Shown here: positions 2,060 to 36,968 of the stretch, piece by piece
Layout: the number at the start of each line of letters is the position of its first letter
Numbering within the stretch: position 1 is the first letter of the stretch
Source: Escherichia phage HK633
DNA length: 41,528 nt
Sequence record: NC_019719.1
Reading direction: 5' to 3' (one strand)
Notes under the pieces: model-generated
The model's input: only the letters and a program-made list of their open reading frames with translations
Database searches by the model: none
Told to the model about the DNA's origin: nothing
Program-made: the position numbers and the translations under genes

Positions 2060-3333
2060 TGGAAGAACCTAAATACACGATTGACCTGCGAACCAATAAC
2101 GGCTGGTGGGCAAGGCTGCAGTCCTGGTTTGTCGGCGGGCGTTTAGTCACCCCAAATCAGGGCTCACAGACGGGGCCTGTTTCGGCCCACGGACACCTGG
2201 GCGATTCATCCATTAACGATGAACGGATACTGCAAATTTCGACTGTGTGGCGCTGCGTGAGCCTGATTTCAACGCTCACGGCATGCTTACCGCTTGATGT
2301 CTTCGAAACAGACCAGAATGACAACCGTAAAAAAGTGGATTTGAGCAATCCACTGGCGCGACTGCTGCGCTACTCACCGAATCAGTACATGACCGCCCAA
2401 GAATTCAGGGAGGCCATGACGATGCAGCTCTGTTTCTACGGTAACGCATATGCACTTGTGGACCGCAACAGCGCAGGTGACGTGATCAGCCTTCTCCCGC
2501 TTCAGTCTGCCAATATGGATGTGAAGCTCGTCGGAAAAAAAGTGGTTTATCGCTATCAACGCGACAGCGAATACGCCGACTTTTCGCAGAAAGAGATTTT
2601 TCATCTTAAAGGCTTCGGATTCACCGGGCTTGTAGGCCTGTCACCCATTGCTTTTGCCTGTAAATCGGCAGGTGTGGCAGTTGCGATGGAGGACCAGCAG
2701 CGAGATTTCTTTGCCAACGGCGCCAAGTCTCCGCAAATCCTCTCAACTGGCGAAAAAGTGCTAACTGAACAGCAGCGCTCCCAGGTCGAAGAGAACTTCA
2801 AAGAGATCGCCGGCGGCCCGGTAAAAAAACGCCTCTGGATTCTGGAAGCGGGTTTTTCTACATCGGCAATTGGCGTAACTCCGCAGGATGCCGAAATGAT
2901 GGCGTCCCGAAAATTTCAGGTAAGTGAACTGGCGCGATTCTTTGGCGTACCGCCTCACCTTGTCGGCGACGTCGAGAAATCAACGAGCTGGGGATCGGGC
3001 ATCGAGCAGCAGAATCTCGGCTTCCTGCAGTACACCCTGCAGCCCTATATCTCCAGGTGGGAAAACAGCATTCAGCGGTGGCTTATTCCTGCTAAGGATG
3101 TTGGCCGCATTCATGCTGAGCACAACCTCGACGGCCTGCTGAGGGGCGATTCGGCATCCCGCGCTGCCTTTATGAAGGCAATGGGAGAGGCAGGGCTACG
3201 CACCATCAACGAGATGCGACGAACGGACAACCTCCCGCCATTGCCGGGTGGCGATGTGGCAATGCGCCAGTCGCAATACGTGCCGATCACCGATTTAGGA
3301 ACCAACAAAGAGCCCCGTAATAACGGGGCTTAA
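2059..3333 (+). CDS. Portal protein (HK97 family)
   Basis: 424 aa from ATG 2059 (ORF track begins at GTG 2056); start overlaps TerL stop (TGATG); conserved position between TerL and prohead protease. Confidence 0.88.
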   Translation: MEEPKYTIDLRTNNGWWARLQSWFVGGRLVTPNQGSQTGPVSAHGHLGDSSINDERILQISTVWRCVSLISTLTACLPLDVFETDQNDNRKKVDLSNPLARLLRYSPNQYMTAQEFREAMTMQLCFYGNAYALVDRNSAGDVISLLPLQSANMDVKLVGKKVVYRYQRDSEYADFSQKEIFHLKGFGFTGLVGLSPIAFACKSAGVAVAMEDQQRDFFANGAKSPQILSTGEKVLTEQQRSQVEENFKEIAGGPVKKRLWILEAGFSTSAIGVTPQDAEMMASRKFQVSELARFFGVPPHLVGDVEKSTSWGSGIEQQNLGFLQYTLQPYISRWENSIQRWLIPAKDVGRIHAEHNLDGLLRGDSASRAAFMKAMGEAGLRTINEMRRTDNLPPLPGGDVAMRQSQYVPITDLGTNKEPRNNGA

Positions 3334-3350
3334 TTTTTATGGGGGCCGTA

Positions 3351-4028
3351 ATGCCTGAAATCGTAAAAACGCTGTCCTTCGACGAGACAGAAATCAAATT
3401 CACCGGTGACGGTAAACAGGGGATTTTTGAAGGCTACGCCTCTGTTTTTAATAACACCGATTCCGATGGCGACATCATTCTGCCCGGGGCGTTTAAAAAC
3501 GCGCTGGCGAACCAGACCCGAAAAGTGGCGATGTTTTTTAACCACAGGACGTGGGAACTGCCGGTTGGCAAATGGGACAGCCTGGCTGAGGACGAAAAAG
3601 GCCTGTATGTGCGCGGTCAACTTACCCCAGGACACAGCGGCGCCGCTGACCTGAAAGCGGCAATGCAGCACGGTACGGTTGAAGGTATGTCGGTTGGCTT
3701 TTCCGTTTCGAAAGACGATTACACCATCATTCCAACAGGCCGCATTTTTAAGAATATCCAGGCTCTGCGCGAAATCAGCGTCTGCACTTTCCCCGCCAAC
3801 GAACAGGCTGGCATCGCAGCCATGAAAAGTGTCGATGGTATTGAAACGATTCGTGATGTGGAGAACTGGCTGAGGGATTCAGTCGGCCTCACCAAATCAC
3901 AGGCAGTTGGGCTAATTGCCCGGTTTAAGTCAGCGATTCGGAGCGAGTCCGAGGGCGACGGAAACGAAGCACAAATAAACGCTCTGCTTCAGAGCATCAA
4001 ATCTTTCCCTTCTAACTTAGGTAAATAA
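3351..4028 (+). CDS. Prohead maturation protease (HK97 gp4-like)
   Basis: ATG 3351 preceded by GGGGG 5 nt upstream gives 225 aa, the size I recall for HK97 gp4; ORF track starts 12 nt earlier at 3339. Confidence 0.85.
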   Translation: MPEIVKTLSFDETEIKFTGDGKQGIFEGYASVFNNTDSDGDIILPGAFKNALANQTRKVAMFFNHRTWELPVGKWDSLAEDEKGLYVRGQLTPGHSGAADLKAAMQHGTVEGMSVGFSVSKDDYTIIPTGRIFKNIQALREISVCTFPANEQAGIAAMKSVDGIETIRDVENWLRDSVGLTKSQAVGLIARFKSAIRSESEGDGNEAQINALLQSIKSFPSNLGK

Positions 4029-4030
4029 TT

Positions 4031-5188
4031 ATGTCTGAACTCGCTCTCATTCAAAAAGCTATCGAAGAATCCCAGCAGAAAATGACCCAGCTTTTCGATG
4101 CGCAGAAAGCAGAAATCGAAAGCACAGGCCAGGTTTCCAAACAGTTGCAGTCCGACCTGATGAAAGTACAGGAAGAGCTGACCAAATCCGGCACTCGCCT
4201 CTTCGATCTGGAACAGAAACTGGCATCCGGCGCTGAGAATCCTGGTGAGAAGAAATCCTTCTCTGAACGGGCTGCTGAAGAGCTTATTAAGTCATGGGAC
4301 GGTAAACAGGGCACCTTTGGCGCTAAAACGTTTAACAAGTCACTAGGCAGTGACGCTGATTCGGCTGGCTCACTGATCCAGCCTATGCAGATCCCAGGCA
4401 TCATCATGCCAGGCCTGCGCCGTCTTACCATTCGTGATCTGCTGGCTCAGGGCCGCACTTCCAGTAACGCTCTGGAATATGTGCGTGAAGAGGTGTTTAC
4501 CAATAACGCCGACGTGGTGGCAGAGAAAGCACTGAAGCCAGAATCGGATATCACCTTCAGCAAACAAACCGCGAACGTGAAGACCATCGCGCACTGGGTG
4601 CAGGCATCACGTCAGGTGATGGATGATGCGCCAATGCTTCAGTCCTACATTAACAACCGCCTCATGTACGGCCTGGCACTGAAGGAAGAGGGCCAGCTGC
4701 TGAACGGCGACGGTACCGGGGATAACCTGGAAGGGCTGAACAAAGTGGCAACCGCCTATGACACCTCGCTGAATGCCACCGGCGACACCCGCGCTGACAT
4801 TATCGCTCACGCTATTTATCAGGTGACCGAGTCTGAGTTCAGCGCTTCCGGTATCGTCCTGAACCCGCGCGACTGGCACAACATCGCGTTGCTGAAAGAC
4901 AATGAAGGCCGCTATATCTTCGGTGGTCCTCAGGCATTCACCAGTAACATCATGTGGGGCTTGCCAGTGGTTCCGACTAAGGCGCAGGCCGCCGGCACCT
5001 TTACCGTAGGCGGTTTCGATATGGCCTCACAGGTCTGGGATCGCATGGATGCCACCGTGGAAGTTAGCCGTGAAGACCGCGATAACTTCGTGAAAAACAT
5101 GCTGACCATCCTGTGCGAAGAGCGTCTGGCGCTGGCGCATTATCGCCCGACAGCAATCATCAAGGGCACCTTCTCTTCTGGCTCATGA
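4031..5188 (+). CDS. Major capsid protein (HK97 gp5 type)
   Basis: 385 aa; counting residues gives Lys103 (delta-domain cleavage boundary), Lys169, Asn356 and Glu363 at the positions known for HK97 isopeptide crosslinking. Confidence 0.95.
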   Translation: MSELALIQKAIEESQQKMTQLFDAQKAEIESTGQVSKQLQSDLMKVQEELTKSGTRLFDLEQKLASGAENPGEKKSFSERAAEELIKSWDGKQGTFGAKTFNKSLGSDADSAGSLIQPMQIPGIIMPGLRRLTIRDLLAQGRTSSNALEYVREEVFTNNADVVAEKALKPESDITFSKQTANVKTIAHWVQASRQVMDDAPMLQSYINNRLMYGLALKEEGQLLNGDGTGDNLEGLNKVATAYDTSLNATGDTRADIIAHAIYQVTESEFSASGIVLNPRDWHNIALLKDNEGRYIFGGPQAFTSNIMWGLPVVPTKAQAAGTFTVGGFDMASQVWDRMDATVEVSREDRDNFVKNMLTILCEERLALAHYRPTAIIKGTFSSGS

Positions 5189-5194
5189 TGGAGG

Positions 5195-5216
5195 GGGCGG
5201 GGAAACCCGCCCTTTT
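5195..5216 (+). terminator. Intrinsic terminator-like hairpin after capsid gene (GGGCGGG-GAAA-CCCGCCC + TTTT)
   Basis: 7-bp GC stem, GAAA loop and T4 run read directly from sequence, 6 nt after the capsid stop and 5 nt before the next ATG. Confidence 0.5.
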
Positions 5217-5221
5217 AACGT

Positions 5222-5548
5222 ATGGCGATAGATGTTCTGGATGTAATTTCCCTCAGTCTGTTTAAGCAGCAGATTGAGTTTGAGGAAGACGACAGGGACG
5301 AGCTGATCACGCTGTACGCCCAGGCCGCTTTTGACTACTGCATGCGCTGGTGCGATGAACCAGCATGGAAGGTTGCGGCTGATATTCCTGCCGCCGTTAA
5401 GGGCGCCGTTCTGCTTGTCTTTGCTGACATGTTTGAACACCGGACGGCACAAAGCGAAGTGCAGCTTTATGAGAATGCAGCCGCCGAACGCATGATGTTC
5501 ATTCATCGCAACTGGCGCGGTAAAGCCGAATCAGAGGAGGGCTCCTGA
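5222..5548 (+). CDS. Head-tail connector / DNA-packaging protein (gp6-like)
   Basis: 108 aa directly after capsid gene; position and size match head-completion genes of HK97-like modules. Confidence 0.65.
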   Translation: MAIDVLDVISLSLFKQQIEFEEDDRDELITLYAQAAFDYCMRWCDEPAWKVAADIPAAVKGAVLLVFADMFEHRTAQSEVQLYENAAAERMMFIHRNWRGKAESEEGS

Positions 5549-5886
5549 TGGAACCAGGACGATTCAGGCACCGGGTAAAAATTCTCACCTTCACGACTTC
5601 GCGCGATCCATCTGGTCAGCCGGTTGAATCGTGGACAGGTGGCAACCCGGTCCCGGCTGAGGTAAAGGGGATCAGCGGCAGAGAGCAGCTTTCAGGCGGC
5701 GCGGAAACGGCGCAGGCAACGATTCGCGTCTGGATGCGCTTCAGGTCAGAGCTGAATGCCTCTTCTCGTCTGGAAGTGCTCAGCGGCCCGTATAAAGGTC
5801 AGGTGCTAAATATCATCGGTCCTCCTGTAGCAAATGCGACTGGCACTCGCCTGGAAATTCTTTGCAAAACGGGAGCTGAAAAATGA
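5548..5886 (+). CDS. Head-tail adaptor / head closure protein
   Basis: 112 aa; GAGGAGG RBS; TGATG overlap with previous gene. Confidence 0.65.
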   Translation: MEPGRFRHRVKILTFTTSRDPSGQPVESWTGGNPVPAEVKGISGREQLSGGAETAQATIRVWMRFRSELNASSRLEVLSGPYKGQVLNIIGPPVANATGTRLEILCKTGAEK

Positions 5887-6332
5887 TTGAGACGAGCCTC
5901 GATTTTTCCGGGTTAAATGACATCGCAAAGGATCTGGAGGCGCTTAGCCGCGCTGAAAACAATAAGGTTCTTCGTGATGCCACCCGCGCCGGCGCGGAAG
6001 TGCTTAAGGAAGAAGTGATCGCCCGCGCTCCGGTGCGTACCGGGAAACTGAAAAAAAACGTGGTGGTGGTGACCCAAAAAAGCCGTCGCCGCGGGGAAAT
6101 TTCTTCCGGCGTCCATATTCGTGGCGTTAACCCGCGCACCGGAAACAGCGATAACACGATGAAGGCTAATAACCCGAGAAACGCCTTTTACTGGCGATTC
6201 GTTGAGCTGGGTACCGCGAACATGCCTGCACATCCGTTTGTGCGACCCGCTTACGATACTCGCGAGGAAGAGGCCGCCAGCGTCGCCATTGCCAGGATGA
6301 ATCAGGCTATTGATGAGGTATTGAGCAAGTGA
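5883..6332 (+). CDS. Tail component (HK97 gp10-like)
   Basis: 149 aa; ATGA overlap with upstream gene; position in head-tail joining block. Confidence 0.6.
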   Translation: MIETSLDFSGLNDIAKDLEALSRAENNKVLRDATRAGAEVLKEEVIARAPVRTGKLKKNVVVVTQKSRRRGEISSGVHIRGVNPRTGNSDNTMKANNPRNAFYWRFVELGTANMPAHPFVRPAYDTREEEAASVAIARMNQAIDEVLSK

Positions 6333-6676
6333 ATGAAGATAATATCTACGCCTTGCTTTCTCCCCTGGCAGAAGGACGGGTATATCCCTATGTTGCGCCA
6401 TTAGGTAGTGACGGTAAACCGTCTGTCTCTCCACCCTGGATTATCTTTTCCATCGTCGATGATGTTTCCGCTGACGTGCTGTGTGGTCAGGCAGAGAGCA
6501 GGGTTTCCGTTCAGGTCGATGTGTATTCCACTTCGATCGCTGAATCACGATCCCTGAGAGATTTGGTGCTCGCTTCGCTTGAGCCGTTAACCCCTACAGA
6601 GGTGGTAAAAATCCCCGGGTACGAGCCAGATTATCGGCTCTACCGTGCCACCCTGGATTTTAAAGTTACCCCCTGA
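6329..6676 (+). CDS. Tail completion protein (DUF3168-like)
   Basis: 115 aa; GTG start overlapping upstream stop (GTGA); immediately upstream of major tail protein. Confidence 0.55.
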   Translation: MNEDNIYALLSPLAEGRVYPYVAPLGSDGKPSVSPPWIIFSIVDDVSADVLCGQAESRVSVQVDVYSTSIAESRSLRDLVLASLEPLTPTEVVKIPGYEPDYRLYRATLDFKVTP

Positions 6677-6695
6677 CAATTAATTCACCCAACGA

Positions 6696-6722
6696 ACCCG
6701 CCAGATGGCGGGTTTTCTTTTT
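6696..6722 (+). terminator. Terminator-like hairpin (ACCCGCC-AGAT-GGCGGGT + T-rich run) before major tail gene
   Basis: 7-bp stem, 4-nt loop, TTTTCTTTTT tail read from sequence. Confidence 0.5.
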
Positions 6723-6735
6723 CCAGGAGACAGCT

Positions 6736-7440
6736 ATGTCTGCACTTTATGAAAAATCGCAGCTGACGAAGATCCTTATTTCCTCCCTGCCGTCCACCAA
6801 AGAAACGATGGATTCCGCCACCTTTCTCGATCTGAGTTGCACCATCAAAGAAATTCAGTTCACTGGTGGCCAGAAGCAGGATATCGACGTAACAACACTT
6901 TGCTCTACCGAGCAGGAGAACATCAACGGCCTGCCTTCTCCGTCAGAAATCTCTCTGTCCGGCAACTTCTACAATAATCCAGCGCAGGACGCCTTGCGTG
7001 ATGCGTATGACAACGACACCACTTACGGCTTCCAGATCATCTTCCCGTCAGGTAATGGTTTTAAGTTCCTGGCCGAAGTTCGCCAGCATACCTGGTCATC
7101 TGGTACCAATGGTGTTGTGGCAGCTACATTCTCACTGCGCCTTAAAGGCAAGCCTGTCCCGATTGACTCTGTACTTAAACTGACCACTGATCTTCCTTCC
7201 TCACTGTCTGTAGCGGTGGGGGCTGCGATCAGCATGGCTGTAGTAGCTGCCGGTGGTAAGCCTCCGTATGCCTACACCTGGAAGAAGGCAGGTAGCACCG
7301 TCAGCGGGCAGACATCCGATACCTTTAATAAAGCCACCGCAGTTTCAGGTGATGCAGGTGATTACACCTGTGTGGTTACGGATTCTTCTTCTCCGGTCAA
7401 AACGGTTACCTCAGCTGCCTGCACCCTTACTATCAGTTAA
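6736..7440 (+). CDS. Major tail protein with C-terminal Ig-like domain
   Basis: GGAG RBS; 234 aa; C-terminal ~80 aa resembles Big_2/Ig-like decoration domain as in lambda gpV. Confidence 0.8.
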   Translation: MSALYEKSQLTKILISSLPSTKETMDSATFLDLSCTIKEIQFTGGQKQDIDVTTLCSTEQENINGLPSPSEISLSGNFYNNPAQDALRDAYDNDTTYGFQIIFPSGNGFKFLAEVRQHTWSSGTNGVVAATFSLRLKGKPVPIDSVLKLTTDLPSSLSVAVGAAISMAVVAAGGKPPYAYTWKKAGSTVSGQTSDTFNKATAVSGDAGDYTCVVTDSSSPVKTVTSAACTLTIS

Positions 7441-7474
7441 TGGAGATGCCGGGTTGTCCCGGCATGGATAAGCG

Positions 7475-7861
7475 ATGTCGCAAACTTTAAAACAATTAGC
7501 CATGGCGAAAATGGCTGGCTTTCGCCATAAGACGGTCGTTGTCCCTGAGTGGGAAGGTGTCAAAGTGGTTCTCCGTGAGCCGTCAGGTGAAGCCTGGCTG
7601 CGCTGGCAGGAGGTGGTGAAAGGGGGGGCCGACGATGAAAATGTGTCGGTATCGGAAAAGGCGCACCGTAATCTTTGCGCTGACGTGGTGCTCTTCATTG
7701 ACGTTCTGTGTGACACCGATAAGCAACCGGTATTCAGCGTAGACGAAGAAGAGCAGGTGCGTGAAATCTACGGGCCCGTGCACTCACGTCTGCTCAAACA
7801 GGCGCTTGACCTGATCAACAATGCGGACGAAGCGCGGGAAAAGTCTCAACCCCCGGCGTAA
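7475..7861 (+). CDS. Tail assembly chaperone (gpG-like)
   Basis: 128 aa between major tail and tape measure; the -1 frame is open from 7810 into the next ORF. Confidence 0.75.
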   Translation: MSQTLKQLAMAKMAGFRHKTVVVPEWEGVKVVLREPSGEAWLRWQEVVKGGADDENVSVSEKAHRNLCADVVLFIDVLCDTDKQPVFSVDEEEQVREIYGPVHSRLLKQALDLINNADEAREKSQPPA

Positions 7862-8148
7862 AGTTTCTGATGTCGCTTGCGCTCCGGATGGGGCGCACGC
7901 TCTCAGAGCTTCGGCAGAATATGACGGCAAGCGAGCTTCTGATGTGGATTGAGTACGACAGGCAAAGCCCGGTTGGCGATATTCGCGGTGATATCCATGC
8001 AGCGCAGATTGTCTCTGCCATCTACGGCTCGCAGGGGGCAAAAGTACCGCTGGACGATGCGATCCTGCGCTGGGGTGGTGATGAGCAATCAGAACCGAAG
8101 GACCCGTTTGCAGGGCTTGAGGCGGCACTTACAGCTGCGACACAATAA
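7810..8148 (+). CDS. Tail assembly chaperone T-frame segment (expected G-T fusion via programmed -1 frameshift)
   Basis: -1 frame relative to G is open from 7810; G-rich/A-run GGGAAAAG at 7836-7843 and C5 run at 7850-7854 lie in the overlap; conserved G/GT arrangement in long-tailed phages. Confidence 0.6.
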   Translation, partial: PDQQCGRSAGKVSTPGVKFLMSLALRMGRTLSELRQNMTASELLMWIEYDRQSPVGDIRGDIHAAQIVSAIYGSQGAKVPLDDAILRWGGDEQSEPKDPFAGLEAALTAATQ

Positions 8149-8205
8149 TTGCTTCACATGCCTTCAATGTAGCGATACGCTCTTTCCTTAAGTAAAGGAG
8201 GCGTT

Positions 8206-8394
8206 ATGGAACCACTGGTAGTAGTGTTTGGAATATTCGGCTGGCTGATAAATCTAATTGTGATTTTTTATTTATTACGGTTTAGCACAAGGGCAAATGA
8301 ACAAGTTGAAGCCCTTAAAGAGATAAATAAAAAGCAAGATGCGCAAATAGATTTATTAATACAAGTCGCTCACCAAAGAAAAGACAGTTTATAA
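8206..8394 (+). CDS. Small inner-membrane protein, YebO / HK97 gp15-like moron
   Basis: 62 aa; AAGGAGG RBS 4 nt before ATG; N-terminal TM helix then R-x-S-x-RAN-x-QVE motif; own terminator follows; sits between G/T and tape measure as HK97 gp15 does. Confidence 0.75.
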   Translation: MEPLVVVFGIFGWLINLIVIFYLLRFSTRANEQVEALKEINKKQDAQIDLLIQVAHQRKDSL

Positions 8395-8400
8395 CTCACG

Positions 8401-8425
8401 ACCCGCTATCAAGCGGGTTTTTTTT
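8401..8425 (+). terminator. Intrinsic terminator (ACCCGCT-ATCA-AGCGGGT + T8)
   Basis: Perfect 7-bp stem, 4-nt loop, 8 T residues; ends at tape-measure start. Confidence 0.8.
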
Positions 8426-8437
8426 ATGGGTGAAAAT

Positions 8438-11400
8438 ATGGCTACGTTGCGCGAACTGATCATCAAAATATCTGCAAACTCTCAGTCATTCCAGTCTGAA
8501 ATTTCTCGTGCTTCAAGAATGGGGAATGACTATTACCGGGTAATGCAGACTGGAGGACGCCAATCGGCCGCAGCTTCGCGTGAAACTCAGCGTGCCTTGG
8601 CTGAGGTAACTAGTCAAATAAACACCGCGAAGGCCTCAGCACTGGGAATGGCTGGTGCATTTGCTGGAGCATTTGCGACTGGTCATCTTATATCGCTGGC
8701 CGATGAATGGAGCTCTGTTAATGCCAGGCTAAAGCAGGCTTCCCAGTCGTCAGATGATTTCACGGAGTCCCAGCGGGCGCTGATGGATATTAGCCAGCGA
8801 ACCGGAACCGCCTTCTCTGATAATGCGAGTCTTTTTGCGCGTTCAGCCGCTTCTATGCGTGAATATGGCTACAGTTCAGAAGAGGTTCTGAAGGTAACCG
8901 AGGCTATATCAACAGGGCTTAAGCTGTCAGGCGCAAGCGCGTCTGAAGCGAGTTCGGTAATCACGCAGTTCAGCCAGGCTCTGGCGCAGGGTGTTCTTCG
9001 AGGCGAGGAATTTAACTCCGTCAACGAAAACGGTGATCGAGTTATCCGTGCTCTTGCCGCAGGGATGGGTGTAGCTCGTAAAGATCTGAAGGCAATGGCC
9101 GATCAGGGGATGCTAACCGCAGATAAAGTTGTCCCGGCCCTGATAAGTCAACTTGGCACTATGCGTGGTGAATTTGAGGCAATGCCGCAGACCGTTTCTG
9201 CTGCCACGACGAAAGTCGAAAATGCTTTCATGGCATGGGTAGGTGGCGCTAATGAAGCCACTGGTGCGACAAGTACTCTTGTTGCCGTATTGAATACGGT
9301 TTCTGACAATATAGACACTGTGGCTACGGCTGCCGGAGCTTTGGCTGCGATAGGTGGAGCTCGCTATCTTGGAGGGATGTTTGGCGATCTTGGGAACCAG
9401 ACGGCGCAATTAATAGATGCCAGAAAGAACGAAATTGCGCTCGCAGCTGCAAGGGCTGAATCTGCTACCCAATCACAACGCAAGGCCGCCGCCGATGCTA
9501 TTGCTGCTGAGCGAGCTTACCAGCTTGCTCAGTCAGAACTTGTGCTGGCAAAGAATACTAATGCTGAGGCTACTGCCACTCAAAATGCCATATCCAAGCG
9601 CCGGGCAATGATTACAGCAAATGCGGCACTGGTACAGTCAAACAGAGCCGTTGCAGCCTCTCAGCAGGCACTTAACTCTGCAACATCAGTGCTGGGGCTT
9701 GTAAAAACTGGCGCTACGGGTCTTTTGTCGTTAGTTGGTGGTTTGCCAGGAATTTTAATGTTGGGTGCTGGGGCGTGGTACACGATGTATCAACGCCAAG
9801 AACAAGCCAGGGAATCTGCAATCCAATATGCGGACACAATCGAGCAGGTACGAGATAATCTGAAATCAATGTCTCAGACGCAGATATCCGCCAACCTTGG
9901 ACAGGCGAATATTTCACTGGATGCTCAGAATAGTGCGATTGAACAGCAGAAGCAGAAAGTTGCTGAATTATCCAATCAACTTTATAACGCAAAATTAGCA
10001 GCCAATTCTGCTTCAGAGGGGACATGGCTGTATAACGATGCGGTTGAGAAAGCCGCAGACTTTGCTTCAGAACTTGCGGTTGAAGAAGGCCGACTTGAGC
10101 AAATGCTCAATAAAAGAAAGCAAACACAACAGTTAATAAACGACATAACTGATCAGGCTATAAATAAAACAGTAGAAATGGCTGGCGCCGTAAGTTCTCT
10201 TACAGAGATGTATGACCGGCTGAACAAGGTTTCCAGACAGTCTACAGCAGTGTCCCCACCAAAATATGCAGGACCTGTACTTCCTGCGCTTGATAATAAG
10301 CAACAACAAGCTATTGAGAAAGCACAGCGACAGCTTGAGCTATCTGGCCTTCAGGGTTTGGATAAGGCTCGAAAGCAGGCAGAATTCGATGCATCTGATC
10401 TGAACCTTCCAGCTGGTTGGCGTGAGAAATATGTCAGCATGGAAGTTGAGTCTGCCAGGCAATTACAAGCAATTCGTAACTCAAGCCGCCATAAGGGTGG
10501 AAAATCCGAGGCGGAAAAAACAGCTGATACCTATGACAAGCTGATCAAGCAGCAAAAAGAGCAGATCGCTCTGCAAGGGCAGAATACCGAGCTGGCAAAG
10601 GTTAAATATCAGGTAAGCCAGGGTGAGCTTTCTACGCTAAGTCAGGCCCAGAAAGCCGAAGTTATGCGTAATGCTGCTCTCATCGATCAGGTTAAATTGC
10701 GTGAGCAACTGCGAAATTACGAAGCCAACCTTGCTGACAGTAACGACAGCGCCCGCGCAGCCAATGAAGCGCAACTGCTGGGCTACGGGCAGGGAACCAG
10801 GTTCCGTGAAAGACTTCAGGAGCAGTTCAATCTGCGTAAGGAGTTTGAGCAGAAGAATACCGATCTTCTCCGCCAGCGTCAGGCTGGTGAAATCGACGAG
10901 ACGTTCTATCAGCAGGGGCTGGCACTTAATAAGCGCTACCTCGAAGAGCGCCTGCGCGACCAGGAGGGATATTACGCAGCTTCTGATGCGCAGCGTGACG
11001 ACTGGATGACGGGACTGTCTGAGGGTTATGCGAACTGGGTGGATGAAGCGACAGATTACTCCTCCATGGCAGCTGACGGGATGAAGCAGGCAATGGGTGG
11101 GGCGGTAACTTCGATTACTGACATGCTCAATGGTAACGTCGACAGCTGGAAGGACTGGGGTGTCAGCGTACTGAAGATCATCCAGAATGTTCTGGTCAAT
11201 ATGGCTGTTGCTAACGGCGTCAGTTCAATTGGTTCTCTCTTCAGCTTTGGCGCATCTTCCGCCGCTGCCGCCAGTAGCGGTACTGCAATTCAGAACGCTG
11301 GCGCGAACTTCACCTTTAACGCGAAGGGTAATGTTTACGACTCTCCGTCCCTGAGCGCATACAGCAATGGCGTGTTTCAGACCCCTCAGCTTTTTGCTTT

Positions 11401-11704: not shown

Positions 11705-11706
11705 AA

Positions 11707-12800: not shown

Positions 12801-12801
12801 T

Positions 12802-13512
12802 ATGCGTCAGAAAACCATCGATGCGATTATGGCGCATGCTGCAGCTGAATATCCTCGTGAGTGTTGTGGCGTGGTGGCGCAAAAGAGCCGGGTAGAGAAA
12901 TATTTTCCATGTAGTAACCTCGCTACCGAGCCGACAGAACATTTTCACCTGTCTCCAGAAGACTATGCAGCTGCTGAGGACTGGGGTACGGTGATCGCCA
13001 TCGTTCACAGTCACCCTGACGCCACAACGCAGCCGAGCGAACTGGATAAAGCGCAATGCGACGCAACGCTTTTACCCTGGCATATTGTGAGCTGGCCGGA
13101 GGGGGATTTACGCACCATCCAGCCGCGCGGAGAACTGCCACTGCTGGAGCGTCCGTTTGTGCTTGGACACTTCGACTGCTGGGGGCTGGTAATGAGCTAT
13201 TTCCGGCAAACGCATGGTATCGAGCTCCACGATTACCGGGTGGATTATCCCTGGTGGGAAAACGCCTATCCGGACAATTTTTATCAGGATTGCTGGTATG
13301 AATGCGGATTCAGGGAGTTTGACGGCCCGCCTCAGGAAGGGGACCTCGTCATCATGCAGGTGCAGGCCGATAAGTGGAATCATGCCGGGATTTTACTGGA
13401 GGGTAACATGCTGCTGCACCACCTGTACGGACATCTGAGCCAGCGCGTGCCGTATGGGGGCTACTGGCAGGAAAGGACGATGAAGATTCTTAGACATCAG
13501 AATTTTATTTAA
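12802..13512 (+). CDS. K: Tail tip assembly protein K (JAB/MPN + NlpC/P60)
   Basis: GGAG RBS; HSHPD JAMM-type motif in N-terminal half, Cys/His-containing C-terminal half. Confidence 0.85.
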   Translation: MRQKTIDAIMAHAAAEYPRECCGVVAQKSRVEKYFPCSNLATEPTEHFHLSPEDYAAAEDWGTVIAIVHSHPDATTQPSELDKAQCDATLLPWHIVSWPEGDLRTIQPRGELPLLERPFVLGHFDCWGLVMSYFRQTHGIELHDYRVDYPWWENAYPDNFYQDCWYECGFREFDGPPQEGDLVIMQVQADKWNHAGILLEGNMLLHHLYGHLSQRVPYGGYWQERTMKILRHQNFI

Positions 13513-13559
13513 CAAACTGTCACTGATACTATCGTGTAGCACACAGCAAGGAGAACGAT

Positions 13560-13784
13560 ATGTATACAGTTGGGTTTGGTTGGATCTTCGTCGGTATTTT
13601 TATTGGGTTAATTCTCTGGTTTTTCATCAACCGCGCCAGCGTCAGAGCGAACAGGCAGGTTGAATTACTTGAGTCTATCGACCAGAAATTATCAAAAATA
13701 GTAGATCCAAACTTCGAGGCAAATAACAAAGACCAGTCGAAAGAAAACTACCTTGAAGAAGCAAGGAAAAAAGCTGGGCTTTGA
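13560..13784 (+). CDS. Second YebO / gp15-like small membrane protein (paralogous moron)
   Basis: 74 aa; AAGGAGA RBS; N-terminal TM helix (GLILWFFINRAS) and RAN-x-QVE motif shared with ORF 8206-8394; GATACT -10-like hexamer at 13525-13530; own terminator. Confidence 0.7.
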   Translation: MYTVGFGWIFVGIFIGLILWFFINRASVRANRQVELLESIDQKLSKIVDPNFEANNKDQSKENYLEEARKKAGL

Positions 13785-13800
13785 GAGCGTAAATTAACAA

Positions 13801-13822
13801 ACCACCTACGGGTGGTTTTTTT
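13801..13822 (+). terminator. Intrinsic terminator (ACCACC-TACG-GGTGGT + T7)
   Basis: Perfect 6-bp stem, tetraloop, T7 read from sequence. Confidence 0.8.
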
Positions 13823-13833
13823 ATGGGGGCAGC

Positions 13834-14442
13834 ATGCAAGAGGTAATGACAAGAATTGAGCTAAGTGGCGTGCTAGCTAAGACATATGGAAGGGTTCATC
13901 ACCGTCTGGTTCTCACTACTGCTGAAGCCATTAATGCACTCGCGAAAACCATCAATGGATTCGAGAAATTCTTAAACACAAGCAAAGCCCGAGGGCTGAC
14001 GTATGCCGTTTATAGAGATAAAAAGAATATTGGCGTTGATGATCTCGGCTTTCCCGTCACCGGCGAAGTGATCCGGATTGTCCCTGTAGTAATAGGGAGT
14101 AAAAAGGCTGGTCTTTTGCAGACGATCTTGGGGGCCGTGCTTATTACTGCTGCTGTGTTGACTGGCCCCGGCGGTATTGGCGCTGCTTTCGCTGCTGGTG
14201 GATTGACGGGGTTTGCTGCTGCCACTGGTGCCTCGTTGGTCCTCGGTGGGGTTATTCAGCTTCTTTCACCACAGCCATCAGGCATAGCCAGCAAACAAAG
14301 CGCAGATAACCGTGCATCGTATGCATTCGGCGGTGTTACAAACACCGCGGCACAGGGGTACCCGGTGCCTCTGCTTTATGGTAAGCGTCGAATCGGCGGA
14401 GCGATTATTTCTGCCGGAATTTATGTCGAAGATCAGCAGTAG
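13834..14442 (+). CDS. I: Tail assembly protein I
   Basis: 202 aa; N-terminal ubiquitin-like region and Gly/Ala-rich hydrophobic C-terminal half; between K and J. Confidence 0.8.
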   Translation: MQEVMTRIELSGVLAKTYGRVHHRLVLTTAEAINALAKTINGFEKFLNTSKARGLTYAVYRDKKNIGVDDLGFPVTGEVIRIVPVVIGSKKAGLLQTILGAVLITAAVLTGPGGIGAAFAAGGLTGFAAATGASLVLGGVIQLLSPQPSGIASKQSADNRASYAFGGVTNTAAQGYPVPLLYGKRRIGGAIISAGIYVEDQQ

Positions 14443-14460
14443 ATAACAAACCTTTTTACA

Positions 14461-14484
14461 AGCCACCTCCGGGGGGCTTTTTTT
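14461..14484 (+). terminator. Terminator-like hairpin (GC-rich stem with bulge + T7) before J
   Basis: AGCCACCTCCGGGGGGCT followed by TTTTTTT. Confidence 0.5.
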
Positions 14485-14495
14485 ATGGACGCAAT

Positions 14496-17400
14496 ATGGC
14501 AACTGCAACCGCGATTAAAGGCCGCAAAGGCGGTAGTTCAAAGACACGCACTCCAACTGAACAGCCCGATGATCTGCAGTCAGTTGCGAAGGCGAAAATT
14601 TTAATCGCCCTTGGCGAGGGCGAGTTCTCCGGGCAATTAACCGGCAAAGATATCTACCTGGACGGAACAGCGCTGGAGAACGCCGACGGCTCCCAAAACT
14701 TCAGCGGCGTTACGTGGGAATTTCGCGCGGGAACGCAGGCGCAAAAATATATTCAGGGTATTCCCGGTACCGAAAACGAGATCAGCGTAGGAACTGAGGT
14801 ATCAAGTGCCACAGCCTGGACGCGCACGTTTACCAATACGCAGCTTTCAGCAGTTCGCCTGCGTCTTAAATGGCCCTCGCTTTTCAAACAGGAAGACGAC
14901 GGCGATCTGGTGGGTTACTCGGTCAATTATGCGATTGACCTGCAGACTGACGGCGGCACATGGCAGACGGTACTCAATACCAGCGTGACCGGCAAAACGA
15001 CGTCTGGTTATGAGCGCAGCCACCGTATCGATTTACCGCAGGCTGGCAGCACCTGGACAATACGTCTGCGTAAGATTACCTCTGACGCCAACAGCGCGAA
15101 GATCGGCGACACGATGATGCTGCAGAGCTTCACCGAGGTGATTGACGCCAAACTGCGCTACCCGAACACCGCGCTGCTCTACGTCGAATTCGACTCAAGC
15201 CAGTTCAACGGCTCTATTCCTCAAATTTCATGCGAACCGCGCGGCCGCGTTATCCGCGTTCCAGATACCTACGACCCTGAAACCCGCACTTATAGCGGTA
15301 CATGGACCGGTGCGTTTAAGTGGGCATGGACGGATAACCCTGCGTGGATTTTTTACGACCTGGTTGTTTCTGACCGGTTCGGCCTTGGGCACCGTTTGAC
15401 CGCTGCGAATATTGATAAATGGACGCTTTATCAGGTTGCTCAGTATTGTGATCAGATGGTGCCAGACGGCAAAGGGGGCAACGGTACAGAACCACGTTAT
15501 ACCTGCAACGTGTACATTCAGGACCGGAACGACGCCTACACAGTCCTGCGTGATTTTGCCGCTATCTTCCGTGGCATGACCTACTGGGGCGGGGATCAGA
15601 TTGTGGCCCTGGCTGACATGCCGCGCGATGTTGATTACAGCTATACGCGCGCTAACGTTGTTGGCGGTCGCTTCACCTATTCGAGCAGCACCACGAAAAG
15701 CCGCTACACCACAGCGCTGGTTTCATGGTCAGACCCGGGTAACGCTTATGCCGACGCGATGGAGCCGGTATTTGAGCAGGCGCTGGTGGCGCGGTACGGC
15801 TTCAATCAGCTGGAAATGACAGCCATCGGCTGCACCAGGCAGTCAGAGGCGAACCGAAAGGGGCGCTGGGGTATTCTCACCAATAACAAGGATCGCGTTG
15901 TTTCGTTTGATGTCGGGCTGGACGGAAACATTCCGCAGCCGGGCTACATCATCGCCGTGGCAGACGAGCTGCTTTCCGGAAAGGTTATGGGCGGCCGCAT
16001 CAGCGCCGTTAACGGTCGCGTTATCAAACTTGACCGCGTAGCTGATGCAGCACCAGGTGATCGCCTTATTCTCAACCTTCCCTCCGGAGCGTCGCAGAGC
16101 AGGACCATTCAGGCCGTGAACGGGGAATCAGTCACAGTCACCACGGCATACAGTGAGACGCCACAGGCCGAAGCTGTTTGGGTGGTTGAATCTGACGAGC
16201 TTTACGCGCAGCAGTATCGTGTTGTCAGCGTTTCCGATAACAATGATGGCACTTTCTCGATTACCGGCGCATGGCACGACCCGGATAAATATGCCCGTAT
16301 CGATACCGGAGCCATCATTGACCAACGGCCGGTGAGCGTGATCCCGCCGGGCAACCAGTCGCCGCCTGCGAATATCGTGATCAGCTCGTTTTCCGTGGTT
16401 CAGCAAAATATCAGCGTCGAAACGATGCGCGTGAGCTGGGACCAGGCGCAGAACGCTATCGCCTATGAAGCACAATGGCGCCGCAACGACGGGAACTGGG
16501 TTAACGTGCCGCGCACCTCCACCACGTCATTCGACGTCCCGGGGATTTATGCCGGGCGCTACCTGGTGCGCGTGCGCGCAATCAATGCCGCAGAAATTTC
16601 ATCTGGATGGGGCTACTCAGAAGAGAAAACGCTGACGGGTAAAGTGGGCAATCCACCGAAGCCGGTTGGCTTTATCGCTTCTGAAAACGTGGTATTCGGT
16701 ATCGAGCTGAATTGGGGATTCCCGGCGAATACCGACGACACGCTGAAGACGGAAATTCAGTACAGTCTGACCGGTACCGAAGACGATGCGATGCTGCTGG
16801 CCGATGTGCCTTACCCGCAGCGCAAATATCAGCAGATGGGCCTTAAGGCTGGGCAGATTTTCTGGTACCGCGCGCAGCTGGTTGACCGCAGCGGTAACGA
16901 GTCAGGTTATACCGGCTGGGTTCGTGGGCAGGCCAGTATCGATGTTTCTGACATCACAGATGTGATCCTTGAAGACATCAAAGGGTCTGAGACGTTCAAA
17001 GACCTGATCGAGAACGCTGTGGACAGCAATGAAAAAATTGCTGGCATGGCTGACGACATCAAACAGGCCAACGATGAACTTGAACTCCAGGCGCAGGAAA
17101 TCGCAAAAAACGCGCAGGACATCGGGCAGGTTCAGACCAGCGTTAATGAGCTTTCTAGCACGGTCGGTGATGTGTCGTCTTCTCTCTCAGATCTTGAGCA
17201 GACTGTTGCGACTGCTGATACCGCACTGGGCCAGCGAATCGACAGCATCAGCGTGTCTATGGACGGCATGACGGGCGGGGTGAAGAACTCTGCTATCGCA
17301 ATTATCCAGAACGGGCTGGCACAAGTGGCTACGCGTAAATCGTTGTCAGCTTCGGTCGCAGGGAACAGTGCGCAGCTGGATCGTATTGATGAGGTAATCG

Positions 17401-18047
17401 TTAACGAGAAGGAGGCAACGGCGCGTTCTCTGCTGAGCCTGCAGACGGATGTCAACGGCAACAAGGCATCCATAAACAGCCTGAATCAGACGTTCTCCGA
17501 CTATCAGCAGGCTACGGCCACGCAGATAAACGGCATAACGGCGACGGTGAACGGGCATACCTCCGCCATCACCACTAACGCTCAGGCGATAGCCAACGTT
17601 AATGGCGACCTCAGCGCGATGTACAACATCAAGGTTGGCGTTTCCAGCAACGGTCAGTATTACGCCGCGGGGATGGGTATCGGCGTGGAGAATACGCCAT
17701 CCGGCATGCAGTCGCAGGTTATCTTCCTGGCTGATCGCTTCGCCGTCACCACGGCAGCCGGTAACAGCGTGGCTTTGCCGTTTGTGATCCAGAATGGACA
17801 GACATTCATCCGGGCCAGTTTCATCCAGGACGGCACTATCAGCAACGCAAAGATTGGTAATTTTATCCAGTCGAACAATTATGTTGCTGGTTCTGCTGGC
17901 TGGAAGCTTGATAAAGGGGGGACGTTTGAGAACTACGGTTCGACTGCTGGTGAGGGAGCCATGAAACTGACAAATCAGACGATCAGCGTCAAAGATGGCA
18001 GTAATGTTCTTAGGGTGCAGGTTGGCCGATTAACGGGAGTATTCTGA
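14496..18047 (+). CDS. J: Central tail fibre / host specificity protein J
   Basis: 1183 aa; N-terminus resembles lambda gpJ; fibronectin-III-like middle region; largest tail gene after I. Confidence 0.9.
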   Translation: MATATAIKGRKGGSSKTRTPTEQPDDLQSVAKAKILIALGEGEFSGQLTGKDIYLDGTALENADGSQNFSGVTWEFRAGTQAQKYIQGIPGTENEISVGTEVSSATAWTRTFTNTQLSAVRLRLKWPSLFKQEDDGDLVGYSVNYAIDLQTDGGTWQTVLNTSVTGKTTSGYERSHRIDLPQAGSTWTIRLRKITSDANSAKIGDTMMLQSFTEVIDAKLRYPNTALLYVEFDSSQFNGSIPQISCEPRGRVIRVPDTYDPETRTYSGTWTGAFKWAWTDNPAWIFYDLVVSDRFGLGHRLTAANIDKWTLYQVAQYCDQMVPDGKGGNGTEPRYTCNVYIQDRNDAYTVLRDFAAIFRGMTYWGGDQIVALADMPRDVDYSYTRANVVGGRFTYSSSTTKSRYTTALVSWSDPGNAYADAMEPVFEQALVARYGFNQLEMTAIGCTRQSEANRKGRWGILTNNKDRVVSFDVGLDGNIPQPGYIIAVADELLSGKVMGGRISAVNGRVIKLDRVADAAPGDRLILNLPSGASQSRTIQAVNGESVTVTTAYSETPQAEAVWVVESDELYAQQYRVVSVSDNNDGTFSITGAWHDPDKYARIDTGAIIDQRPVSVIPPGNQSPPANIVISSFSVVQQNISVETMRVSWDQAQNAIAYEAQWRRNDGNWVNVPRTSTTSFDVPGIYAGRYLVRVRAINAAEISSGWGYSEEKTLTGKVGNPPKPVGFIASENVVFGIELNWGFPANTDDTLKTEIQYSLTGTEDDAMLLADVPYPQRKYQQMGLKAGQIFWYRAQLVDRSGNESGYTGWVRGQASIDVSDITDVILEDIKGSETFKDLIENAVDSNEKIAGMADDIKQANDELELQAQEIAKNAQDIGQVQTSVNELSSTVGDVSSSLSDLEQTVATADTALGQRIDSISVSMDGMTGGVKNSAIAIIQNGLAQVATRKSLSASVAGNSAQLDRIDEVIVNEKEATARSLLSLQTDVNGNKASINSLNQTFSDYQQATATQINGITATVNGHTSAITTNAQAIANVNGDLSAMYNIKVGVSSNGQYYAAGMGIGVENTPSGMQSQVIFLADRFAVTTAAGNSVALPFVIQNGQTFIRASFIQDGTISNAKIGNFIQSNNYVAGSAGWKLDKGGTFENYGSTAGEGAMKLTNQTISVKDGSNVLRVQVGRLTGVF

Positions 18048-18048
18048 A

Positions 18049-18351
18049 ATGGCTTATGGAATACAGACCTGGGATGCTTCAGGAAAACCCAACAACTATG
18101 GCATCAAACCCGTTTCCGTCGTTGGGCGAATACAGCTGGCTGCCGGGCAAACCTCAGGCAGCTGGTCTTTTACGGTGCCCTCAGGAATGAAAGTTGGTTT
18201 TGTTCTTTCACTTGATGAAGGAGGTAACAGCGTAGGGCGGCGCATTGTCGCGTCAGGGAGCACAATAACCGTAAGCGCTGCATCTTCTGTAGGTCTGGGT
18301 AATTATCCGGCCTCAAAGTGTGAAGTGGTCGTTTTCATGGAGAAAGCATAA
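18049..18351 (+). CDS. Hypothetical protein, translationally coupled to J
   Basis: 100 aa; starts 2 nt after J stop; beta-rich composition. Confidence 0.55.
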   Translation: MAYGIQTWDASGKPNNYGIKPVSVVGRIQLAAGQTSGSWSFTVPSGMKVGFVLSLDEGGNSVGRRIVASGSTITVSAASSVGLGNYPASKCEVVVFMEKA

Positions 18352-18989
18352 TGGCCGAATTTGGCGCGATGATATTAATGGACAACGGGAACCCATTTGT
18401 AACGCCCCAGTCAACGCCTTTTTGTCTTTACGGCAAGTACACTTTCAACTCCTCTGCTAATGGCAGTTCGCAGCAGGTTGCTCAGAATATTGCATTAAAT
18501 GCTGACTACCCTGTGATGGTATTTATCAGGACCACAAATACCGCCCAGCCCACGCCAGTAATATCTTACCGGAACGGCGGAAATATATATGTCGCGGGGG
18601 TTAATCCCTATAACCAGAGCTTCACGTTAACCGCATATATTTTTGCCATATTTCCCCAGACGTTACCGAAATGGGGGATGGCCATCTGGGATTCGAGCGG
18701 GAAGCTGGTACTCACTAATGAGTCCCGCGTGCTGTCAGACTTGCAGACAATCGGAACGCCTGGAGCAAACGGCGGGATTAACATTGACCAGACGCTTGAT
18801 GGTTCATGGGCAGTGGCTCCATCAAGGCTGGGGCAAGTGAACAGAAACGACGCTTACTCATCTTGTAGGTATTCAGGCACAAGTACAAGAATAAACGCCG
18901 GTACAGCCGCAAATACACCTGGCGGTGCTGGAGGGGTGATAAATAATGGAATTATCCTGACAGCAATTAAAACAGACGCCTATGACTGA
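18351..18989 (+). CDS. Hypothetical protein (possible tail-associated)
   Basis: 212 aa; TAATG overlap with upstream ORF; Gly/Asn/Thr-rich. Confidence 0.55.
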   Translation: MAEFGAMILMDNGNPFVTPQSTPFCLYGKYTFNSSANGSSQQVAQNIALNADYPVMVFIRTTNTAQPTPVISYRNGGNIYVAGVNPYNQSFTLTAYIFAIFPQTLPKWGMAIWDSSGKLVLTNESRVLSDLQTIGTPGANGGINIDQTLDGSWAVAPSRLGQVNRNDAYSSCRYSGTSTRINAGTAANTPGGAGGVINNGIILTAIKTDAYD

Positions 18990-19096
18990 TTGTTTTGAGC
19001 GATCAATAACAAATAATTTATCTATCTAATCAATTATACCCATCGATTATGTATTGGTATCTTCGAAGCTACTGAATACCTCTGGATACTATCAAA

Positions 19097-19330
19097 ATGA
19101 AAAGGCTAATTATCTGCATAGCGGGCGCTTTAATGCTGTCTGGTTGTGCTGGTGTACTTGAGAAACAGAAACCGATTTGCAGCGGCACGGCATATATGGG
19201 TGGCCATGAGAATACCGTTATGATTTACGCCGTTCGAAAGCAAAACAACCAGACGCAATACCGGGCCGGATATCCCTTTAACTGGCGCTGGGTAAGTGCG
19301 AACACATTCACAAGCACGACATGTAAATAA
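19097..19330 (+). CDS. Small lipoprotein moron (candidate Cor-type exclusion lipoprotein)
   Basis: 77 aa; signal peptide with lipobox LSGC; AT-rich upstream region 18990-19096; own terminator. Cor assignment is positional only. Confidence 0.65.
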   Translation: MKRLIICIAGALMLSGCAGVLEKQKPICSGTAYMGGHENTVMIYAVRKQNNQTQYRAGYPFNWRWVSANTFTSTTCK

Positions 19331-19350
19331 CTCATGATTTTCAATGCAAA

Positions 19351-19372
19351 CCTCGCCTCGGCGGGGTTTTTT
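19351..19372 (+). terminator. Intrinsic terminator (CCTCGC-CTCG-GCGGGG + T6)
   Basis: GC stem with one G-U pair followed by TTTTTT. Confidence 0.65.
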
Positions 19373-19388
19373 ATTGCCTGGAGAAAAT

Positions 19389-36056: not shown

Positions 36057-36241
36057 ACGCCACAATTCAAACGATACCAGAGCTTCTTATCCAGACACGA
36101 GGCAATCAGACCGAAGTGGCGAGGATGCTTTCCTGCGCAAGAGGAACGGTGCTCAAGTACAACCGAGATAGCAAAGGCGAGCGTCACGTAATAGTTAACG
36201 GCGTCCTGATGGTCAAACAGGGCAAGAGGGGAAGACGATGA
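36053..36241 (+). CDS. ninH: NinH
   Basis: 62 aa; GNQTEVARMLSCARGTVLKY helix-turn-helix as in lambda NinH. Confidence 0.7.
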   Translation: MNATIQTIPELLIQTRGNQTEVARMLSCARGTVLKYNRDSKGERHVIVNGVLMVKQGKRGRR

Positions 36242-36940: not shown

Positions 36941-36968
36941 CGATGGATAAATGCACTCGTTAAATAAA

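Follow-up and report, generated by a model that had tools for sequence, protein, structure and literature searches.

Rho-independent-terminator-type hairpins at the intercistronic junctions of the late operon of Escherichia phage HK633

What are the GC-rich hairpins that stand between the late genes of Escherichia phage HK633, and why are several of them followed by the same T-run and ATGG? We addressed these questions in the 41,528-nt record NC_019719.1 (the window, meaning this whole stretch), which is a complete genome of an HK97-like lambdoid phage beginning at cos. A first-pass annotation had listed seven hairpins with T-runs immediately before late gene starts and had read them as terminators that would be read through under the antiterminator Q, would insulate morons from the late genes in a lysogen, and could tune stoichiometry or stabilize mRNA. 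Morons are genes with a promoter and a terminator of their own, a concept that a passage of PMC3594210 credits to the HK97/HK022 genome paper (Juhala et al. 2000). Our analysis indicates, with good though not complete confidence, that the hairpins are of the rho-independent-terminator type and form part of the junctions between cistrons in a late operon antiterminated by Q. At face value little of this is new, since HK97-group genomes have carried putative-terminator annotations at hairpins of this series from 2000 onward (taken together, GenBank entries for HK97, HK75, HK106, phi80 and mEp390 mark all seven as terminators or putative terminators of the rho-independent type) and the proposed roles are textbook. 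The new content is a correction concerning the Shine-Dalgarno (SD) sequences, an eighth hairpin, the breadth of conservation, and the recurrence of a hairpin-containing cassette.

RESULTS

Hairpins occupy the late gene junctions in excess of chance and on one strand

The late genes lie on the + strand in the order terminase, portal, protease, major capsid, gp6/7/10/11, major tail and G/T chaperones in the head part, followed in the tail part by gp15-like, tape measure, M, L, K, gp20-like, I, J, two open reading frames (ORFs), cor and side tail fibre. Each sizeable intergenic gap of this operon contains a hairpin, except the upstream (promoter-side) gaps of the morons. The seven hairpins listed by the first-pass annotation were all found at the coordinates that it gave, and an eighth, absent from its list, was found at 7446-7465. 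All eight are on the + strand, between + strand genes or at their ends, and start between -23 and +20 nt relative to the preceding stop codon. We number the junctions J1 to J8 in genome order.

At J1, between portal and protease (3311-3338; stem 3311-3318/3323-3330; ΔG -16.7 kcal/mol, z -5.3), the hairpin proper (3311-3330) lies inside the last portal codons, the portal stop being 3331-3333, and is followed by an interrupted U-tract, TAATTTTT. J2 (5195-5216; ΔG -21, z -4.7) follows the major capsid gene, which stops at 5186-5188, and carries a T4 tract (T3 in some relatives), with the gp6 start 5 nt past the T-run. J3, between gp11 and the major tail gene, is made up of a hairpin and TTTCTTTTT (6696-6722; ΔG -16.1, z -4.9), with an SD sequence AGGAG at 6725-6729 and the major tail start at 6736. 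J4, the additional hairpin (7446-7465; ΔG -15.6, z -3.0), is separated by 5 nt from the major tail stop and by 9 nt from gp13, and no U-tract follows it. Two hairpins follow YebO-type morons, namely J5 (8401-8425; T7-8; ΔG -13, z -4.4), 6 nt after the gp15-like gene and before the tape measure gene, and J6 (13801-13822; T7; ΔG -12.2, z -3.9), after the gp20-like gene and before gene I. J7 (14461-14484, hairpin 14461-14478; T7; ΔG -9.9, z -1.65) separates I from J, and J8 (19351-19372; T6; ΔG -14.3, z -4.1) follows cor and precedes the side tail fibre gene. J3, J5, J6, J7 and J8 carry 6-9 T 3' of the stem.

RNA folding bore out the seven hairpins listed earlier, with ΔG values from -9.9 to -21 kcal/mol and, for all of them except J7, z values between -3.9 and -5.3 relative to dinucleotide shuffles. 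Their stems measure 6-11 bp and are closed by tetraloops, which matches the GC-rich stem (about 5-14 bp, short loop) of intrinsic terminators. We scanned positions 1-20700 for strict terminator-like sites, defined by a stem of 7 bp or more, no fewer than 5 G-C pairs and a T-rich tail. The + strand held 6 such sites, compared to 0.33 ± 0.56 in shuffled sequences, and 0 of 200 shuffles reached as high a count, while the - strand held 1 site, compared to 0.64 in shuffles. An Rfam scan of the whole window returned no family at gathering score.

Two further hairpins that pass terminator scans lie inside the 3' end of gene I (14353-14373 and 14393-14417); both have poor T-tails and are probably due to chance.

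The hairpins are maintained while their sequences change

The relatives used for comparison were 80 IMG/VR loci with mosaic flanks and a capsid protein that shares at least 94% identity with that of the window; seven junctions were located in them via protein anchors. Among named phages, DNA identity across the late region (3000-20000) is 98.5% to HK75, 98.1% to mEpX1, 97.5% to HK97 and 97.4% to HK106. The J1 hairpin was the same in 82 of 82 relatives, with a nearly invariant stem and a variable loop. The number of loci with a minor allele was 1.06 per site in the stem, 6.5 in the loop and 2.35 in the upstream coding sequence, even though the stem is itself coding; loop codons undergo amino acid changes while stem codons are fixed. 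The same pattern was seen at J2, where the stem is invariant in 83 loci, the loop varies and the T-run measures 3-4 nt.

At other junctions, the hairpin persists with a different sequence. In 73 relatives, J3 shows at least six different stem sequences, each followed by a T-run, GGAG and ATG. RNAalifold, applied to a MAFFT alignment of these J3 variants, recovered hardly any consensus structure, as the different stems do not line up with each other. A hairpin is present in 36 of 38 variants of the T/tape measure junction (J5), in most moron-bearing variants of the K/I junction (J6), and in all 37 variants of the I/J junction (J7). At the J4 position, the outcome depends on the type of tail tube: the 234-amino-acid (aa) type, found in the window, has a hairpin without T-run, the 156-aa type has a canonical GCGGCTTCGGCCGC followed by T7, and the 147-aa type has nothing.

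Hairpins J6 and J7 are members of a single sequence family, which allowed covariation to be assessed; the loop-anchored alignments of J3 and J5 were gapped and were left unused, so that the covariation evidence comes from the J6/J7 set only. In the loop-anchored alignment of this family, 97.3% of cells were paired and 0 of 500 shuffles were as high, a percentage that is biased upward since the alignment is anchored on the best hairpin of each sequence. Four of the seven pairs have changed on both sides (for example, A-U to G-C, C-G or U-A), and the family contains G-U pairs, which would be mismatches on the opposite strand. Its J7 consensus, AGCCACC-loop-GGTGGCT, folds at about -14 kcal/mol. 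The J7 hairpin of the window is weaker (-9.9 kcal/mol) because position 14474 is G instead of the consensus T, which breaks one stem pair; one relative (L005) shares this substitution. Structure is thus kept through loop-only variation, compensatory change or full replacement of the stem, which is what characterizes a selected structure.

Hairpins were also found beyond the range of sequence similarity. In Klebsiella phage KpF5, whose capsid protein shows 68% identity, the corresponding five junctions hold hairpins (portal/protease, downstream of capsid, on either side of the tail tube gene, and upstream of the tape measure gene), some with unrelated sequences; the one after its capsid gene is a different GC-rich hairpin without T-run. 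Phage lambda (L083) has hairpins at its own late junctions: D/E (6095-6135, with T7, just before the capsid gene), E/Fi (7163-7180, without T-run), I/J (15462-15505, hairpin-TTTATGGAG-ATG), J/lom (18920-18935) and lom/stf (19612-19650, T6-GTGGGGTGAAT-ATG), indicating that the junction layout is general to lambdoid siphophages.

The ATGG after the T-run is part of the next ribosome-binding site

The first-pass annotation had noted that three hairpins end in the same T-run and ATGG. This recurrence was confirmed and extended: TTTTTTTATGG has three exact copies (8419, 13816 and 14478), and the shorter TTTTTATGG has four, the fourth at 3334, all of them on the + strand. Shuffled sequences gave 0.43 ± 0.67 copies of TTTTTATGG, and 0 of 100 shuffles reached four. 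What did not hold is that this ATG is the start of genes I and J. At each of the four sites a second ATG follows 11-12 nt downstream, and the first ATG, 11 nt upstream of the I (13834) and J (14496) starts, is out of frame with both genes.

The sequence between the two ATGs has the properties of an SD element. At the protease gene, ATGGGGGCC and a 3-nt spacer precede the start at 3351 (3339-3353), with GGGGG at 3341-3345 and an anti-SD duplex of -8.4 kcal/mol that ends 4 nt before the ATG. The tape measure gene is preceded by ATGGGTGAAAAT (8426-8440; start 8438; GGGTGA at 8428-8433; -8.3 kcal/mol) and gene I by ATGGGGGCAGC (13823-13836; GGGGG at 13825-13829; -8.4 kcal/mol), so that in these three genes a duplex of -8.3 to -8.4 kcal/mol lies 3-4 nt before the second ATG; an energy of -8 kcal/mol is attained by only 7.6% of random 18-mers. 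Gene J is preceded by ATGGACGCAAT (14485-14498), in which TGGA is a weak SD sequence. Relatives have ATT, ACG, GTG or AAT in place of the first ATG but retain the GGGG, GGAG or GGGTGA behind it; at the tape measure junction in particular, the ATG becomes ATT, ACG or AAT and GGGTGA persists. At J1, positions 3331-3347, comprising the TAA, the T-run and ATGGGGGCC, show zero polymorphism in 81 loci, while positions 3348-3350 vary at all three sites, as fits a spacer rather than a codon.

As judged from these sequence comparisons, the ATGG is the beginning of an SD sequence set directly after the U-tract and not a start codon, and the predicted starts are 3351 for protease, 8438 for the tape measure protein, 13834 for I and 14496 for J. 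Existing records disagree on this point, HK97 using the second ATG for protease and tape measure and HK75 the first. The coding sequence of the tail fibre in the HK75 and HK106 records runs through the hairpin; here the start is most likely 19389, behind GGAG, and not 19344.

The gp6 gene (start 5222) has no SD sequence within 18 nt upstream. The sole GGAGG in the vicinity is at 5190-5194, just 5' of the J2 hairpin, and does not vary among 52 loci; the arrangement is shared by KpF5, with a different hairpin. This layout (5190-5224) may represent a "split" SD sequence bridged by the hairpin, or a translation throttle.

Three of the hairpins follow moron-type or accessory genes

Low-GC or accessory genes (gp15-like, gp20-like and cor) stand directly upstream of the hairpins at 8401, 13801 and 19351, with a hairpin and T6-8 located 6-20 nt past the stop codon of each. 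The GC content is 0.33 for gp15-like (8206-8394) and 0.40 for gp20-like (13560-13784), compared to 0.52 for the late region; that of cor (19097-19330), 0.47, is marginal. Both gp15-like and gp20-like match the Pfam YebO-like family (PF13974), which makes the two tail-operon morons distant paralogues located at two different junctions. In relatives, the T/H gap measures 10-22 nt where the moron is absent and 291-1633 nt where it is present; the K/I gap measures 11 nt in L020, the only moron-less relative at this junction, and 324-782 nt in the others.

The two junctions behave differently when the moron is missing. L020 lacks the J6 hairpin, while at J5 moron-less variants are among those that retain one, with the layout TGA-GCCCGCGGCTGCGGGC-T6-ATGGGTGAAAT-ATG; different morons at J5 are accompanied by different hairpins and by the same downstream T-run and ATGGGTGAAAT. 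The hairpins at 3311, 5195, 6696 and 14461 adjoin no moron in the window, and J1, J2 and J3 have no moron in any of 73-83 relatives and yet always have the hairpin. In HK97, morons 22/23 lie upstream of the J7 hairpin; the window lacks them. The proposal that the hairpins insulate morons therefore suits the three that follow accessory genes and is not the explanation of the other four.

A Q gene with pR'- and tR'-like elements precedes the late genes on the transcript

The window encodes a Q antiterminator (36238-36861, + strand) that matches Pfam PF03589 with an E value of 1.8e-57; lambda Q belongs to a different family. The gene is followed on the same strand by a pR'-like promoter (36904-36932, TTGACT-17-TAAATT), a candidate by consensus match only, and by a strong 13-bp hairpin with a T-tail (36966-36994) that is tR'-like by sequence match only. 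The HK106 record places a PR'-like promoter directly after its own Q gene, which is the equivalent place. The presence of Q, pR' and tR' candidates, the hairpins adjacent to morons and the moron-less L020 without hairpin fit the notion, at the level of sequence, that moron terminators would be read through under Q.

A hairpin, T-run and SD cassette recurs between unrelated genes

J8 is part of a 41-nt cassette (19348-19388) that consists of the hairpin, T6, ATTGCC and TGGAGAAAAT and includes the SD sequence GGAG (19380-19383). A copy that is identical at 38 of 41 positions (93%) is present in KpF5 (L087, around 13438-13478), where it separates a lipoprotein gene from the tape measure gene instead of cor from stf; the flanks are dissimilar and the three differences are all in the loop. 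A 26-mer of this cassette is present in at least 120 contigs of IMG/VR, where at least 4 unrelated gene families follow it and at least 9 precede it. The near-identical 20-mer TTTTTTATGGGTGAAATATG, which corresponds to T6-ATGGGTGAAAT-ATG (8420-8440 in the window), occurs in at least 120 viral contigs (IMG/VR loci L208-L304). It is followed by 14 unrelated gene families and preceded by 77 different segments, and a good hairpin accompanies 91% of its occurrences. The recurrence of this shorter motif may stem from transfer or from convergence on a good SD sequence after a U-tract. Within the window, a T-run with ATGGGTGAA is found at J5 and J7, a T-run with ATGGG[GC]GC at J1, J6 and J7, and a T-run with ..CTGGAGAAA at J3, J5 and J8.

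DISCUSSION

A model for the junctions

From the position, strand bias, conservation and SD complementarity of these elements we infer a model of termination, read-through and physiological roles. Each junction unit would lead from a stop codon, through a GC-rich hairpin within 20 nt, a U-tract and the next SD sequence, to a spacer of 3-7 nt and the next start codon, J1 being the case in which the hairpin lies inside portal codons. Polymerase lacking the Q modification acquired at pR', coming from moron promoters, from stray promoters or from leakage through tR', would stop at the hairpins, keeping the structural genes silent in the lysogen while the morons are expressed, and three of the hairpins would end the moron transcripts. 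In lytic growth, Q-modified polymerase would read through all of them. In the read-through mRNA, the hairpin and the U-tract would then form the 5' flank of the next ribosome-binding site (RBS), with the ATGG at four junctions serving as the beginning of the SD sequence (UAUGGRG, compare UAAGGAGG). J2, with its short U-tract, and J4, with none, follow the two most abundant structural genes and would be the best candidates for an extra role, be it protection of the mRNA 3' end or damped translation of the next gene. For J4, and perhaps for J2, an action at the level of the mRNA is the more likely one.

Translation may add another layer. Li et al. (2015, PMC4824070) found, in a synthetic two-reporter operon, that a ribosome at the stop codon represses the terminator tR2 over short distances, its efficiency being less than 10% with a spacer of 5 nt, as opposed to about 90% with 28 nt and, in general, past about 27-30 nt; all eight hairpins of the window lie inside the repressing zone. 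If this result applies here, polymerase would be halted at the hairpins chiefly while the cistron before them is untranslated, which would constitute a second gate beside Q. Tuning of stoichiometry by termination, as proposed earlier for the hairpins after the capsid and tail tube genes, is unlikely, because J1 precedes protease and capsid and a terminator there would lower the product that is needed in the greatest amount.

Several observations speak against this interpretation or limit it. The eight hairpins are not all credible terminators: J4 has no U-tract and that of J1 is interrupted, and in an approximate d-score, based on the d'Aubenton-Carafa formula with modern energy parameters, and usable as a rough ranking only since even the tR'-like hairpin is slightly negative, J2, J3, J5, J6 and J8 are terminator-like, J7 is borderline, J1 scores -7 and J4 -44. 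The SD sequence at I/J is weak, with an anti-SD energy of only -3.0 kcal/mol. The predicted moron promoters are weak too, agreeing with the consensus at 8-9 of 12 positions in the gaps upstream and in no case passing the scan threshold. A ribosome trailing close to the stop codon might let even unmodified polymerase read through whenever the upstream gene is translated, if the result obtained with tR2 can be carried over. Moreover, one transcript carries the lysis genes first and the head and tail genes after them, so that these sites cannot shield a lysogen from leaky expression of the lysis genes. Our literature search found no usable 3'-end mapping for the late operons of the HK97 group or lambda, and no usable transcriptomics for the HK97 group.

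Alternative explanations

The alternative that we take most seriously, while judging it appreciably less probable than not, is that the hairpins act mainly after transcription, by blocking 3'-to-5' exonucleases once an endonuclease has cut the read-through late mRNA and so stabilizing its upstream part, and by damping the next gene or delivering a distant SD sequence. Output of capsid and tail tube would then be raised relative to that of their downstream neighbors, whose starts lie 5-9 nt behind the hairpins. J4 and J2 suit this proposal well, having no U-tract or only 3-4 U and yet some of the most stable or most conserved stems, as do the GC-rich hairpins without T-run that stand right after the capsid genes of KpF5 and lambda with unrelated sequences, and gp6, whose only GGAGG lies just 5' of the hairpin rather than next to its start. 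It is also true that, if Q-modified polymerase ignores terminators, any lytic role must be post-transcriptional. A stability element, however, does not need the canonical 6-9-nt U-tracts of J3, J5, J6, J7 and J8, nor would it explain why the U-tract is kept through complete turnover of the stem at J3, J5, J6 and J7, and the J1 hairpin follows portal, whose product is of low copy number. Cleavage sites for RNase III were rejected, since this enzyme requires about 20 bp and the stems measure 7-11 bp. A second proposal, which we regard as rather unlikely, treats the units of hairpin, T-run and SD sequence as mosaic joints, that is, as linkers for the exchange of morons and tail modules through short homology or as leftovers of past morons, so that their presence would owe as much to the history of the genome as to a current function. 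The 38/41 match between unrelated genes in KpF5, the occurrence of the 26-mer beside many gene families, the sharing of motifs between junctions (J6 and J7 even being of one hairpin family), the insertion of the HK97 morons upstream of the J7 hairpin, and the shared T-run and ATGGGTGAAAT behind the different hairpins of J5 all point in this direction. They are countered by the moron-free J1, J2 and J3, which always keep the hairpin, by the strict strand polarity, the U-tracts and the compensatory changes, which argue for selection on RNA, and by the chance that the 20-mer reflects convergence. The more specific idea that a "terminator-RBS cassette" of about 40 nt is a portable module, which would offer recombinases a homology patch for swapping morons and tail modules, like the linkers of modular theory, and supply the downstream gene with an RBS, is more speculative still, and we consider it doubtful.

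Two other proposals carry little weight compared to terminator-type hairpins joined to an SD sequence. It is improbable that the ATG of the T-run and ATGG works as a start codon, giving a protease and a tape measure protein with four additional residues or short upstream ORFs that overlap the I and J starts. TATGG is strikingly recurrent, positions 3339 and 8426 are in frame, and the HK75 record annotates both as starts; yet this ATG does not share the reading frame of I or J, is preceded by a U-tract and not by an SD sequence, is exchanged in relatives that keep the G-run, and would make 3348-3350 a fourth codon that varies at all positions in genes otherwise 97-100% identical. The HK97 record, which comes from the laboratory that studied these proteins, takes the second ATG, and short upstream ORFs were rejected since the ATG is not conserved. 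Finally, there is hardly any probability left for palindromes arising by chance, as a by-product of coding or as protein-binding sites in DNA. The overlap of J1 with portal and the chance-like hits at 14353 and 14393 inside gene I are what such an explanation could draw on. The shuffles, none of which reached the observed count, the restriction of the excess to one strand and the conservation effectively refute chance, and a coding by-product is at odds with the location of all hairpins between genes or at a gene end and with J1 loop codons that change while stem codons do not. Symmetric DNA binding sites were rejected on the basis of strand polarity, one-sided T-runs and G-U pairs.

Comparison to known systems

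Terminators are annotated at the same sites in closely related phages. The HK97 record (AF069529) has a "putative terminator" at the equivalents of J1 to J7, including J1 and the J4 hairpin that was missing from the earlier list. The HK75 (HM173637) and HK106 (JQ086369) records each annotate six of the hairpins, J1 in both and, in HK106, one after cor; the latter, J8, is also annotated as a terminator in phi80, mEp390 and others. With respect to these records there is essentially no difference; the window carries the substitution that weakens the I/J stem.

With moron units, the window shares hairpins that follow accessory genes (8401, 13801 and 19351) in the manner of moron terminators. It differs in that J1, J2, J3, J4 and J7 are unattached to a moron, in that the T/H junction keeps its hairpin even when moron-less, and in that the shared cassette includes the SD sequence of the next gene, which is not part of the definition of a moron. 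The late operon of lambda (pR', qut and tR') has in common with it a Q gene followed by a pR'/tR'-like pair and the internal hairpins, with 8 hairpin junctions in the head-tail region of the window versus about 5 in lambda.

In phage T7, the partial terminator Tφ lies after gene 10, the major capsid gene, and in malEFG, hairpins of the REP type stabilize malE. J2 and J4 resemble both in that a stable GC-rich hairpin stands directly 3' of the most highly expressed gene; unlike in T7, the polymerase here would be host RNA polymerase modified by Q and not T7 RNA polymerase.

The present analysis settles the conflicting start annotations of protease, tape measure and side tail fibre in favor of the likely starts given above, and it sets the hairpins that look like real terminators apart from the two, after capsid and after tail tube, that probably act on mRNA. 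The order of stop codon, hairpin, U-tract, SD sequence and start codon is kept well beyond sequence similarity, lambda and a Klebsiella phage included. If the cassette were indeed a recombination joint, it would bear on the origin of lambdoid mosaicism and on moron traffic.

Other features of the late transcript

The series of hairpins extends upstream on the late transcript, where the tR'-like hairpin after Q is followed by two sites of hairpin and T-run between the lysis genes and cos, both on the + strand. The first (39142-39164; d-score +15) lies after the lysis genes and the second (40237-40254; d-score +13) upstream of the ORF at 40275-40862.

The G/T-type tail chaperone pair (7475-7861 and 7870-8148) is the counterpart of HK97 gp13/gp14, which the HK97 annotation joins via a -1 frameshift.

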